Origin: an uncultured bacterium
GTDB lineage: Bacteria; Krumholzibacteriota; Krumholzibacteriia; Krumholzibacteriales; Krumholzibacteriaceae
NCBI GenBank assembly: GCA_965369375.1
Contig: CBDUQN010000002.1
Coordinates: forward strand, 36,966 to 100,965
Reading direction: 5' to 3'
Length of the DNA: 64,000 nucleotides
Positions 45,307 to 48,190 of this stretch are shown here, piece after piece. The notes under the pieces are model-generated. The model did not search any database and was not told the DNA's origin. It saw only the letters and a list, made by a program, of their open reading frames with translations. How positions within the stretch are numbered: the first letter of the stretch is position 1; each line of letters starts with the position of its first letter. A program made the translations under genes and the position numbers.

Positions 45307-46824
45307 ATGAGGGAAGCACGGAATAGCGTAGGAGGATGGGCGCTCATCACGGCAATAATGGTCGTGGCATTATTCTTGAGGCTTTTCCGTATCGGCCACC
45401 AGTCCTTGTGGATCGATGAGCTGCTTTCGCTCAGGGCCATCACCCCCCCTCCCGGTGTTTCGTTCTGGGAAAGAGTCCTCTGGGATGTTCACGGACCCCT
45501 TCACTCGACGATCCTTCATTTCTGGAGCCGCGTTTCGATGTCGGATGCGTGGTTGAGAGGACCGAGCGCAATTGCCGGTGCCCTCTCCGTGTTCTTCATC
45601 TATCGGTGGCTCGCACCGAAAGGGGGGAGGGAAAGAGCCTTAGCGGCGGCCCTTATCCTTGCGCTCAATCCATTCAGCCTGTACTACTCTCAGGAGCTCC
45701 GATTCTATTCGTTGCTCGTTCTCTTCGTGATCATATCCCTGATCGTTTTCGAGCGCTTCCTCGAGCATCCGTCGCCGGGCAGCGGTGCGGTTCTCGGAGT
45801 TATCCTCGCACTGACTTGCCTGTCGCACTTCTCGGGCGGATTCCTCTGCCTCGCCTTTCTCGTCTACCTGACCTGCACCGGGAGGTTGAAGGGCGGACAC
45901 CTCTGGCCGGCGTTGCTCGCCGTTGTTATCGTTCTCGGGGCGATATCACCGTGGATCTATCGCGAGATCCTCAATTTGCGGAGCATAGAGGTAGTGAATA
46001 TTTCAACACTCCCAGTCGAAGAGAGACTGAGAGGCGAACTGACGCTGAATCTCTGGTCCTACCCGTATATTCTACACGCTTTTTCCACCGGGTACTCGTT
46101 CGGTCCCGATCTTCGCGAGCTCCATATGATCGGTTCCGCATTCGAACTGCTCAAGGGCTATTGGCCGCACCTGCTGATAACCGTAGCGCTCTTCGGCGGC
46201 CTCGCGGCGGCGGGAGTGGTCAGCGCATTCAGAGAAGGCAGGCTCGGGTTCTTCCTATCTATTGTTGCGGTTACGATCGTTTCCGGAACGGTCATAGCGC
46301 TGCTGAATATAAAGGTGTTCAACGTCCGGTACCTGATGAGCGCGTTCCCCGTTTTCATAGCGCTCCTCGCGTATGGATTGCCAAAACGCAGGATTTACCG
46401 GATAGCGTTTCTCGCGGTCGTCGCTGCCGTGATGCTCGTTTCCGATTGGAACTATTATTTCGCTGCGAAATATGCGAGGGACGATCTGAGGGGTGCGGCG
46501 CGCATCGTCGGCATGGAGGAGAGAGAGGGAGATTTGATAGTCACGGGTATGGCGAAACTCTTCACGTATTACTACGAAGGCCATAACCGGGTCAGGTATA
46601 TACGTCCCCGGAAGCACGATAGAGATGTCTTGAGAGAGATCGTCGGGACAATAATCGAGGGTCATCCGAGAGTCTGGTATCTTCGAACGAGAACGTGGCA
46701 CTTCGATCCCGATGATTCGCTCATTGATGTTCTTTCGTCATCGTTTCAGGGGCGCGAGGAATGGGACCTGCCCGGCATACGGTTGATGCTCTTCAAAGAA
46801 TCTTCTATAACTGATAATAAGTGA
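45307..46824 (+). CDS. Polytopic membrane glycosyltransferase, PMT/ArnT-like (GT39/GT83 fold)
   Basis: Multiple TM helices with N-terminal motifs (IGHQSLWIDE, DVHGPLH, ALNPFSLYYSQELRFYS) typical of dolichyl/undecaprenyl-phosphate-sugar-utilising transferases. Start uncertain (TTG 45244 or ATG 45307). Confidence 0.55.
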   Translation: MREARNSVGGWALITAIMVVALFLRLFRIGHQSLWIDELLSLRAITPPPGVSFWERVLWDVHGPLHSTILHFWSRVSMSDAWLRGPSAIAGALSVFFIYRWLAPKGGRERALAAALILALNPFSLYYSQELRFYSLLVLFVIISLIVFERFLEHPSPGSGAVLGVILALTCLSHFSGGFLCLAFLVYLTCTGRLKGGHLWPALLAVVIVLGAISPWIYREILNLRSIEVVNISTLPVEERLRGELTLNLWSYPYILHAFSTGYSFGPDLRELHMIGSAFELLKGYWPHLLITVALFGGLAAAGVVSAFREGRLGFFLSIVAVTIVSGTVIALLNIKVFNVRYLMSAFPVFIALLAYGLPKRRIYRIAFLAVVAAVMLVSDWNYYFAAKYARDDLRGAARIVGMEEREGDLIVTGMAKLFTYYYEGHNRVRYIRPRKHDRDVLREIVGTIIEGHPRVWYLRTRTWHFDPDDSLIDVLSSSFQGREEWDLPGIRLMLFKESSITDNK

Positions 46825-46918
46825 CGCACAGGCAACCACTTACACTCTTTGATAATTTTAAAAAGAGCGGCTTTATATTAATATATTCCGGCATGGCTCA
46901 ATAATTATGTTCAGGAGG

Positions 46919-46946
46919 TTGACAGTTGGATAAAGCGTGATATAAT
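46919..46946 (+). promoter_or_regulatory. Consensus sigma70 promoter: TTGACA (46919-46924), 16-nt spacer, TATAAT (46941-46946)
   Basis: Both hexamers are perfect consensus, read directly. Located in an AT-rich 300-nt gap upstream of the sORF and lipoprotein gene. Confidence 0.6.
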
Positions 46947-46984
46947 ACAATGTGTAGGGAGGGTTCCTCCAGAGGAGGCATCCC

Positions 46985-47119
46985 ATGAACGCAGAAAGCC
47001 CTAAAAAACCGAACTTTGACCGAGGCGCTACGGGTGAAATTGCACCATGGCGTTTTTTTTGTGCATTGGATATCCCTACCGCCAATGCCGGCCGATACCG
47101 TAAGACCCGAGAGGATTGA
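46985..47119 (+). CDS. Candidate small ORF, 44 aa (MNAESPKKPNFDRGATGEIAPWRFFCALDIPTANAGRYRKTRED), possibly a leader or upstream peptide of the lipoprotein gene
   Basis: Strong SD AGAGGAGG 6 nt before ATG 46985, about 30 nt downstream of the consensus promoter. The TGA stop (47117-47119) lies inside the RBS of the next gene (ATG 47125). Below the 60-aa ORF-track cutoff. No homolog recognised. Confidence 0.3.
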   Translation: MNAESPKKPNFDRGATGEIAPWRFFCALDIPTANAGRYRKTRED

Positions 47120-47124
47120 GGAAC

Positions 47125-47568
47125 ATGAAGTCTATTTCACTGGTAATGATCTTGATCGCAATTGCCGCAGGGGGTTGCTCCTGGGTGACATCGAGTGAAC
47201 GGGCGAGTCTCACGAGGCCACAGTCGAGAGAGGAGTATATTACGACCCATCATGATGGTGCGTATAACGATTACATCAGAAACGGTGAGATAACGAAGGG
47301 GATGAATACGCATGAAATTCTTGCTTCTTGGGGATTTCCGAATGCGTATCTCGCATCGAAAAAAGATTCGCGGGAGCATTGGATCTACTATGTGCAAAAC
47401 GAGGATTCGAGATCATATATAACCTACACGCTCAACTTTTCCGGCGAGGTTCTTGCTGGGTGGGCCATCGATATCAAGAGATTTAACGACTACGGCTCCG
47501 GCGGGTCGATCGTCCTGAAGCAGGAGATTCCAGCCGAAGAAAACCGTGTATTTCGAAAGAAGAATTAG
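47125..47568 (+). CDS. BamE/SmpA-OmlA-like outer membrane lipoprotein
   Basis: Lipobox VMILIAIAAGGCS. ITKGMNTHEILASWGFPN...HWIYY resembles the SmpA_OmlA domain. About 147 aa. GC lower than the window average. Confidence 0.45.
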   Translation: MKSISLVMILIAIAAGGCSWVTSSERASLTRPQSREEYITTHHDGAYNDYIRNGEITKGMNTHEILASWGFPNAYLASKKDSREHWIYYVQNEDSRSYITYTLNFSGEVLAGWAIDIKRFNDYGSGGSIVLKQEIPAEENRVFRKKN

Positions 47569-47574
47569 GGTTCG

Positions 47575-47637
47575 GGGCGCCCATTCCACGGAATTGATTT
47601 GAAGAGGTTAAAGGGTGACGAATCGAAGGGCGCCCCT
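47575..47637 (+). other. GC-clamped long-loop inverted repeat (GGGGCGCCC ... GGGCGCCCC, 9-bp arms, about 45-nt loop containing an inner ATTCC/GGAAT hairpin), followed by a pyrimidine-rich, T-rich tract
   Basis: Read directly 7 nt after the lipoprotein stop, about 130 nt upstream of hsp20. Terminator-like or regulatory structure. Confidence 0.35.
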
Positions 47638-47767
47638 TCCCGCTGCAGCCCTTCCTTTTTAAAATTGACTTTCTAATTTCCCTTCTCTATTCTAAAATTC
47701 GATATTTATTAAAGATACTTCTTCAAACGGTATTTCTTACACGGTTTGAGCGAGGGGTGAAGCGCTC

Positions 47768-48190
47768 ATGGCACGAGATGAGCATGATTCTTTAGAGGAG
47801 ATATTCAAGATCTGGGATTCGGAACGGCCCGGGAGCGGACGGATGAAAGTGCAGTCGGAGTTAACGTGGGAACCGGCGGTCGACGTTATCGAAACGGATG
47901 AAGAGCTCATCGCAATTGTCGAGATAGCCGGCATGAACGGTAAGGACATCGATGTCGTGACGGATGGCAATGTTCTCAGAATCAGCGGCCTGCGCAAGGC
48001 CGACGGCCCCGGCGGGAGGAAGCAGTTTCACACGCTCGAGATACGGGTCGGGCGGTTCCTGCGTGAGATCCCGATACCCGTGCGGGTGGACCATTCCAAG
48101 GTTACGGCGAGCTACAATAACGGTATGCTGGAAGTGAGAATCCGCAAGATAAAACAGAGCAGGCATGTCAGGAGAGTAGAGATCGATTGA
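47768..48190 (+). CDS. Hsp20 / alpha-crystallin family small heat-shock protein
   Basis: Alpha-crystallin domain (PAVDVIETDEELIAIVEIAGMNGKDIDV...GMLEVRIRKI), 140 aa. Confidence 0.85.
   Translation: MARDEHDSLEEIFKIWDSERPGSGRMKVQSELTWEPAVDVIETDEELIAIVEIAGMNGKDIDVVTDGNVLRISGLRKADGPGGRKQFHTLEIRVGRFLREIPIPVRVDHSKVTASYNNGMLEVRIRKIKQSRHVRRVEID

Follow-up and report, generated by a model that had tools for sequence, protein, structure and literature searches.

A conserved leader RNA with the layout of a transcription attenuator upstream of a BamE-fold lipoprotein gene in Krumholzibacteriota

Termination at an intrinsic terminator is nearly abolished when a ribosome stands at a stop codon a few base pairs ahead of it, and terminators located within the first 100 bp of an open reading frame (ORF) remain functional except where pausing ties the ribosome to the polymerase (Li et al. 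2016, PMC4824070). According to the same study, the attenuator of Escherichia coli pyrBI sits within a 135-bp leader ORF, and amino-acid attenuators of the trp type have leader stop codons more than 20 bp from the terminator (Li et al. 2016, PMC4824070). Here we analyze a 64-kb stretch of DNA (the window: part of contig CBDUQN010000002.1, assembly GCA_965369375.1) from an uncultured member of the Krumholzibacteriota, and in it the leader that precedes a gene encoding a predicted lipoprotein. Coordinates given below are positions in the window, and the features of the leader lie on its forward strand. An original prediction, made from the letters of the window, proposed that a perfect sigma-70 promoter drives a 44-codon small ORF (sORF) coupled by translation to the lipoprotein gene, attenuation of transcription being named as an alternative. 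What was seen there is real, but the emphasis was wrong: the region is an attenuator leader rather than the gene of a new small protein, and one that plausibly depends on ribosomes. We consider it very probable that this leader is a conserved, cis-acting attenuator of the lipoprotein gene.

A structured leader RNA conserved upstream of the lipoprotein gene

The DNA upstream of the gene was aligned with that of its closest relatives (61-94% lipoprotein identity). The promoter and the full 200-nt region are conserved as nucleotides among them, with insertions and deletions that are not multiples of three, and a profile search (nhmmer) also detects the element in many loci of more distant kind, about 200 nt ahead of the lipoprotein gene. 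A covariance model of the leader RNA (R1), comprising a 5' hairpin domain, a linker and a terminator, matches the window only once, at 46952-47062 (85.9 bits, E = 3e-20). When applied to 488 kb of sequence, R1 yields 40 matches at E <0.01, all of them upstream of a lipoprotein start and on the strand of the gene; the loci concerned belong to the lipoprotein family and come from Krumholzibacteriota and from unclassified metagenome-assembled genomes (MAGs). The distance from terminator end to lipoprotein start ranges from 51 to 81 nt in the 32 full-length leaders tabulated.

Three helices were tested on a 22-sequence MAFFT alignment, with slid pairing partners and 500 shuffles as controls. Overall, 82.8% of cells are paired, versus 37-46% with slid partners (84.6% being the top of the range across alignments). 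Compensatory changes are found in 14 of the 24 pairs, and none of the 500 shuffles reaches the observed covariation; on the R1 model alignment, the number of pairs with compensatory changes rises to 19 of 24. The same hairpins are recovered independently by RNAalifold on two separate clades and by single-sequence folding of each lineage. Run on the plain MAFFT alignment, RNAalifold found the terminator and mispaired the 5' domain, and the P1 and P2 helices of this domain were then derived by hand, tested and supported.

In the window fold, the 5' hairpin domain spans positions 46955-47003. Its outer helix pairs UAGGG (46955-59) with CCCUA (46999-47003), and its inner hairpin pairs CCUCC (46966-70) with GGAGG (46974-78), thereby occluding a sequence that resembles a Shine-Dalgarno (SD) motif. 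Across the family, the outer helix takes the form GGG(U) / (G)CCC, the inner helix joins the region around the G-rich SD-like run to the start-codon region (e.g. AUCAUGGGA-GGUA-UCCCGUGAU), and the consensus helix P2 also pairs the start codon in most relatives. P1 and P2 are 80-85% paired, versus about 40% for slid partners, with compensatory changes in 12 of 15 pairs, and folding of single sequences yields the domain in almost all lineages. Its loops and junctions vary in sequence, yet remain G-rich and SD-like. The linker that follows is variable and purine-rich (purine/A-rich in the window, with A6 at 47003-47008), and no homopolymer tract in it is conserved across clades.

The intrinsic terminator occupies positions 47026-47060 and consists of the GC-rich hairpin CGCUACGGGUG-aaauug-CACCAUGGCG (47026-47052), directly followed by U8 (47053-47060). 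It is found both by RNAalifold and by window folds; its helix is 87-89% paired, with compensatory changes in seven of nine pairs, and a hairpin of -8 to -20 kcal/mol followed by U5-U8 is present in all lineages. The original prediction had pointed to the T8 run (in cgt ttt ttt tgt) and to a weak GGTG/CACC stem. Both exist (GGTG at 47033-36, CACC at 47043-46), but the stem is merely the inner part of a longer hairpin that abuts the U8. As the T8 belongs to a hairpin and U-tract with compensatory changes, attenuation at this run is now the favored reading. In the sequences read, no promoter-like sequence lies between the terminator and the lipoprotein ATG, so the lipoprotein would be made only from read-through transcripts. 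An element that expression of the gene must pass in this way is an attenuator by definition.

Further pairings involve the region beyond the terminator. A second hairpin, CAUUGG / CCAAUG (47064-47087; compensatory changes, 8 sequences), has in its loop the sequence UCCCUAC (47073-79), which complements GUAGGGA (46954-60) at the leader's 5' end. Together, the hairpin and the contact with the 5' end are 88.5% paired, versus 36-52% with slid partners, and 6 of the 13 pairs show compensatory changes in an alignment of only 8 sequences. For example, the hairpin reads CACCGG/CCGGUG in locus L080, and the 5' end and loop read GCAGGGA/UCCCUGC in L002. Since the contact between 5' end and loop can form only in read-through transcripts, it argues for an action in cis, and not merely for a free small RNA (sRNA).

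The promoter upstream of this RNA is a sigma-70-type promoter with two perfect hexamers, as originally predicted: the -35 hexamer TTGACA (46919-46924) is followed, after a 16-nt spacer, by the -10 hexamer TATAAT (46941-46946), which is part of an extended -10 element, TGaTATAAT (46938-46946, with the TG at 46938-39). It scores 12/12 in a promoter scan and is the sole TTGACA-N15-19-TATAAT on either strand of the window, where shuffles lead one to expect 0.01. It is present in all 32 distinct homologous leaders, with a spacing of 16 nt throughout; the -35 hexamer is TTGACA in 30 of them and TTGACG in the other two, the relatives' -10 hexamer is TATAAT or TATACT, and the TG extension is limited to the window's own clade. 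Conservation of the RNA starts 8 nt downstream of the -10 hexamer and, from these two landmarks, the transcript is predicted to start at about 46952-46954. The promoter spacer (46925-46940 in the window) is itself conserved within clades, AGATAAAGCGTG being common to the window clade and the distant L005, and GAATCCGGAATCGGG to the L043 clade. This clade-wise conservation hints at an operator overlapping the promoter.

None of the 4227 families of Rfam 15 reaches its gathering score in the window. Between positions 46700 and 47800 only noise was returned at E up to 10, and nothing was found at the leaders of seven other homologous loci at E up to 1. The statement that no known leader family is recognizable here is thus borne out by the covariance scan, and a literature search found no description of the leader element. 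A new structured leader restricted to this phylum, without a prior name and belonging to a known general kind, the transcription attenuator, is therefore a well-supported reading of these alignments.

The leader ORF and how the terminator may be overridden

The leader ORF (46985-47119; 44 codons; peptide MNAESPKKPNFDRGATGEIAPWRFFCALDIPTANAGRYRKTRED) begins with an ATG at 46985, 6 nt after the SD-like AGAGGAGG (46971-46978). It passes through the terminator and ends with a TGA (47117-47119) inside gaggaTTGAggaacATG, 5 nt ahead of the lipoprotein ATG at 47125. SD, spacing, ORF and a stop within the next ribosome binding site (RBS) are all placed as originally predicted. Among relatives, the start codon is conserved (ATG in the window, GTG or TTG elsewhere), and length, frame and peptide are not. 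The T-run comprises T8, T7, T6 or T4 among the closest relatives, which shifts the frame: counted from the aligned start, the ORF has 11 codons in L081 and 14 in L083 and L086, and in L080 it runs in frame into the lipoprotein. ORF length varies from 8 to >190 codons among 32-33 distinct leaders. Relative to the lipoprotein ATG, 15 leaders have register 2, 11 have register 0 and 8 have register 1. Codon positions 1, 2 and 3 of the leader ORF vary by 0.53, 0.55 and 0.57 bits, respectively, in the best-sampled clade, compared with 0.20, 0.21 and 0.58 bits in the lipoprotein coding sequence of the same 11 loci. No match to the peptide was found in Pfam or NCBIfam. Thus, neither frame, length nor sequence is conserved as would be expected of a conserved sORF, and there is no excess of variation at third positions.

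Because length and register vary and third-position bias is absent, the leader peptide is not under protein-level selection. This disposes of the claim that a conserved small protein is encoded here, for which the original prediction had itself named lack of frame conservation as grounds for rejection. The coupling geometry holds in the window but is not conserved, given the three registers observed; hence both the 44-aa product and the stop-in-RBS arrangement belong to the window and not to the family. Many database entries of the lipoprotein (P0003, P0006, P0030, P0037, P0060, P0084, P0090, and P0094) carry 30-65 extra N-terminal residues, e.g. ..AAFF.. derived from the U-run. These are likely annotation artefacts, produced where the leader ORF is in frame or where the gene caller began inside the leader, and the leader thus explains why such extended lipoproteins recur in public databases.

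What survives of the sORF idea, judging from the aligned leaders, is the conserved SD-like sequence with its start codon. In 32/32 distinct leaders, a start codon ((A/G/T)TG, or the codon that follows it) comes 5-9 nt after a G-rich SD-like run, and both persist where the stem sequence has changed (L002, L008, L046, and L048). The leader ORF that ends earliest stops 13 nt short of the stem of the terminator, and 26 of the 32 extend beyond the terminator. Early stops ahead of the terminator occur in 0/32 leaders in the ORF frame, versus 10/32 and 29/32 in the other frames. We considered this openness as proof of translation and downgraded it to weak evidence, as a shuffle control gave a combined p of ~0.05.

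These features can be assembled into a full mechanism whose chances seem to us evenly balanced, namely a cis-acting attenuator in which the terminator is overridden by a ribosome translating the leader ORF. The near-consensus sigma-70 promoter would start the RNA near 46952, and its first ~50 nt would fold into a long hairpin burying the SD-like GGAGG and the start codon. By default, the leader ORF would remain untranslated and transcription would end after ~108 nt, at a terminator located ~40 nt beyond the 5' hairpin. If some signal opened the hairpin, a ribosome would translate the leader ORF and physically block formation of the terminator hairpin, as at E. coli pyrBI, resulting in read-through. 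The peptide sequence would be irrelevant and only the act of translation would count. In the window only, the ORF stop 5 nt before the lipoprotein ATG could add translational coupling, a feature that is not conserved. Most likely, the leader sets the amount of BamE-fold lipoprotein made.

Several lines of evidence favor ribosome occlusion. SD and start stand at proper spacing in every one of the 32 leaders, and all leader ORFs reach at least to within 13 nt of the terminator stem, most of them reading through it. The layout is repeated in divergent leaders missed by R1 (L024, L025, L031, L060, and L067), in which an SD and a start codon lie ~70 nt before a U-run that the ORF spans or abuts (in L031, the ORF has 44 codons and ends in an ATGA overlap). 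Finally, the geometry matches that in which ribosomes abolish intrinsic termination (PMC4824070).

Other observations weigh against this mechanism. The hairpin that buries the start is very stable, with a median predicted free energy of -20 kcal/mol at 37 C (-15.6 in the window), of which ~-13 kcal/mol is predicted to persist at 55 C. As the freely variable linker is only ~11 nt long, the stop-free stretch up to the terminator has a combined chance p of ~0.05 over 16 lineages, and within the terminator region stops occur in 11/32 leaders in the ORF frame, versus 13 and 18 in the other frames. Pairing to a U in helix P2 would equally permit the A/G variation seen at the first start-codon base, and L006 retains hairpin, terminator and ORF without GGAGG. 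No pyrBI-like U-rich pause region is conserved. Statistical support for translation of the leader ORF is weak. In addition, the window's own leader folds no better than shuffles (z = -0.16 and -0.53), so that only comparative data reveal the structure.

A more specific version of ribosome occlusion, which we put forward tentatively since we doubt it more than we believe it, is a translation-gated attenuator working in two steps: a stable sensor hairpin would license translation of an ORF of irrelevant sequence, and the ribosome would then erase the terminator inside that ORF. The signal sensed could be temperature, the availability of free ribosomes or of a helicase, or an envelope-stress factor. 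If this were true, a two-step attenuator would set the level of a BamE-fold lipoprotein, encoded beside hsp20-lon, across a whole uncultured phylum, and a translational riboregulator would be joined to a pyrBI-style ribosome-occlusion attenuator. We know of no description of such a combination.

The alternative that survives best, although we hold it to be unlikely, is that the leader is untranslated and acts like a riboswitch or a protein-binding attenuator, its 5' hairpin sensing a metabolite, an ion or an RNA-binding protein, and GGAGG and GUG being structural. In one state, the hairpin would free CCCGUG of its 3' strand to pair with CAUGGG in the 5' arm of the terminator as an antiterminator. 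A strong promoter followed by a structured 5' domain, a terminator and a gene is indeed the standard layout of a transcriptional riboswitch, and pairing of the proposed antiterminator is possible in 78.8% of cells, versus 26-57% with slid partners; the hairpin looks too stable for easy ribosome entry, L006 has no SD, and the evidence for an ORF kept open is weak. However, covariation in the antiterminator is no greater than in shuffles, and the unpaired positions of the 5' domain vary, whereas unpaired nucleotides are the most conserved ones in aptamers. Moreover, a start codon is found at SD spacing even outside the stem (L008, L046, and L048), and no Rfam family matches the leader even at E up to 10.

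We regard as distinctly improbable that the leader is an independent sRNA gene, i.e. that an abundant RNA of ~108 nt acts in trans and precedes the lipoprotein gene through mere linkage. The element does have the build of an sRNA gene, with its perfect promoter, compact structured RNA and strong terminator, and terminated attenuator transcripts reportedly act as sRNAs, as for rnTrpL of Sinorhizobium. Each of the ~40 copies nevertheless shares the strand of the lipoprotein gene and lies 50-80 nt ahead of its start, and the sequences read show nothing promoter-like between terminator and ATG. The compensatory changes in the pairing of the 5' end with the post-terminator loop would likewise matter in read-through transcripts only. 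Both functions are compatible, as the RNA terminated by a cis-acting attenuator could have a dual life as an sRNA. Hardly credible, finally, is the primary reading of the original prediction, a functional, basic 44-aa small protein translationally coupled to the lipoprotein: the window does contain 44 codons that begin with an ATG behind a strong SD and end 5 nt short of the lipoprotein ATG, and one subclade (L043, L010, L038, and L051) keeps a 47-codon frame ending in an ATGA overlap, but against this stand the range of lengths, the use of all three registers, three leaders fused in frame, the lack of Pfam/NCBIfam matches and of the codon periodicity that is strong in the neighboring coding sequence, and a peptide similarity that follows the RNA helices (-AFF-, for instance, is the U-run).

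The lipoprotein, its neighborhood and related leaders

The lipoprotein gene (47110-47568) has the SD AGAGGA at 47110-15, its ATG at 47125 and a stop codon ending at 47568. It encodes 147 aa with the lipobox AAGG-C18. A first AlphaFold model, built from 14 sequences, had a predicted local distance difference test (pLDDT) score of 57 and gave meaningless fold matches; it was replaced by a model from a 103-sequence alignment, with a pLDDT of 80.7 overall and >90 over residues 30-120. The best Foldseek matches of this model are OsmE (4dm5) and BamE (5wam), with probabilities of 0.99-1.0, and a 46%-identical homologue is named BamE in UniRef. By contrast, the lipoprotein matches neither the Pfam model PF04355 (Pfam gave a weak DUF6540 alone, at E = 0.024) nor any NCBIfam model, and a profile search of PDB sequences returned no match. 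Aligned by hhalign with E. coli BamE, it reached a probability of 36% (E = 4e-4). The label "BamE-like" that it had been given is thus supported at the level of modeled fold and lipobox, and not by any PF04355 or NCBIfam BamE model. In common with BamE and OsmE (SmpA_OmlA fold), it has a lipobox, a core of two helices and three to four strands, and the motifs GM..(E/Q)V...(W/L)G.P and W.YY; unlike them, it has an extra 30-residue N-terminal helix region and a disordered basic tail.

Homologues of the lipoprotein form a narrow family, found in MAGs of Candidatus Krumholzibacteriota and Latescibacterota. The gene order DUF72 (on the minus strand) / PMT_2 glycosyltransferase / lipoprotein / Hsp20 / Lon is preserved in nearly all of the 80-odd loci retrieved. 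The leader region had been described as AT-rich relative to the window, and GC content is indeed 0.40-0.44 over 46700-46999, versus 0.52-0.59 on either side.

The spacer between lipoprotein and hsp20 (47569-47767) is conserved across Krumholzibacteriota and Latescibacterota. It contains a hairpin, GGGGCGCCC (47574-82) / GGGCGCCCC (47628-36), followed by CCUUCCUUUUU (47650-60); hairpin and CCUUCCUUUUU are probably the terminator of the lipoprotein gene. A second conserved promoter, TTGAC(T/A)TT-N~14-CTAT(T/C)CT (47665-47693), precedes hsp20-lon and is also found in loci without the leader. A single operon with hsp20-lon was thus rejected, as a conserved terminator-like hairpin and a second conserved promoter intervene. 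In the predicted hsp20 5' untranslated region (UTR; 47700-47767), U-rich stretches (CUUCUUC, UUUCUUAC) face the RBS GAGGGGUGAAG, which may make this UTR a candidate RNA thermometer; Rfam signal in it is limited to a sub-threshold pemK hit (E = 1.4). The longest Lon ORF begins at a TTG that overlaps the hsp20 stop codon by 4 nt (48187-48190).

The motif CCGAUACC (47092-47099), located between terminator and lipoprotein RBS, is shared by the window clade, the L032 clade, L005 and L006. The octamer is found 25-40 nt ahead of the lipoprotein RBS in otherwise divergent leaders (L032, L003, L004, L005, and L006), and is complementary to GGUAUC in the SD-start spacer of the leader ORF, imperfectly so in the window (GGCAUC). 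For the L032 clade (columns 109-171 of alignment A7), RNAalifold predicts that the U-tract of the terminator and CGCGCGG pair with CCGCAGCGCAAGGA, which would mask the lipoprotein SD in read-through transcripts. Loci of the Latescibacterota type (L020, L021, L024, L025, L060, L067, and L071) have a different leader before the same lipoprotein gene, with a conserved TTATGCTAC(A/G)CT box, GGCACC, an SD and start codon, and GAUCCGCGG..CUGUGGAU followed by a U-run. From its sequence, this leader looks like a second, related attenuator family that R1 does not detect.

Implications and comparison with known systems

The leader would add a well-supported cis-regulatory RNA family without an earlier name, with ~40 examples, compensatory changes in 19 of 24 pairs and no match in Rfam. 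To our knowledge, no regulatory RNAs are known from Krumholzibacteriota, a candidate phylum without cultured members. It also indicates that these bacteria use a textbook sigma-70 promoter, SD-led initiation and canonical intrinsic terminators. Under ribosome occlusion, it would offer a concrete case of a terminator embedded in a leader ORF of irrelevant sequence, a design documented mainly for pyrBI and pyrE. Finally, it calls for caution, as a seemingly perfect sORF, complete with SD, ATG, 44 codons and a stop inside the following RBS, may be a by-product of an RNA element.

Like transcriptional riboswitches, the leader has a covarying structured 5' domain, then a terminator, then the gene, and a short terminated RNA is expected by default. 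It differs from them in that none of the Rfam families matches it, unpaired positions are not conserved, SD and start are conserved inside the domain, and the gene context suggests no ligand. The hairpin occludes SD and start as in RNA thermometers (ROSE, fourU, and the cyanobacterial hsp17 5' UTR), and the locus adjoins hsp20 and lon. However, the occluded start is that of the leader ORF, not that of the gene, and hsp20-lon have their own promoter. A simple RNA thermometer was rejected, as the hairpin (~-20 kcal/mol) is predicted to be still folded at 55 C and is thus not of marginal stability.

With the trp, his and leu attenuators, the leader shares a promoter, an SD, a short ORF and an intrinsic terminator upstream of the gene. 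Unlike these, it has no conserved runs of regulatory codons and no covariation-supported antiterminator, and its ORF stops lie at most 13 nt before the terminator or beyond it, versus >20 bp (PMC4824070). Attenuation of the trp type was thus rejected, on stop geometry and on the absence of regulatory codons.

The leader also resembles that of E. coli pyrBI. Several differences exist: the window leader has no conserved U-rich, uridine triphosphate-sensitive pause region, the regulated gene is a lipoprotein and not a pyrimidine enzyme, the two leaders are unrelated in sequence, the start of the window's leader ORF lies within a stable, conserved hairpin that buries it, and ORF length and stop position vary widely among relatives. 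The layout is nevertheless that of pyrBI, with a translatable ORF ending near, or containing, the terminator, the openness of this ORF being weakly above chance. As far as pyrBI is described in PMC4824070 (after Roland, Liu and Turnbough 1988), its leader ORF also contains the intrinsic terminator, ends just before the structural gene and encodes a peptide without a function of its own. Its 135 bp equal the length of the window ORF (46985-47119), which is a coincidence. In both leaders, the terminator hairpin would be kept from forming by a ribosome that closely follows the polymerase.

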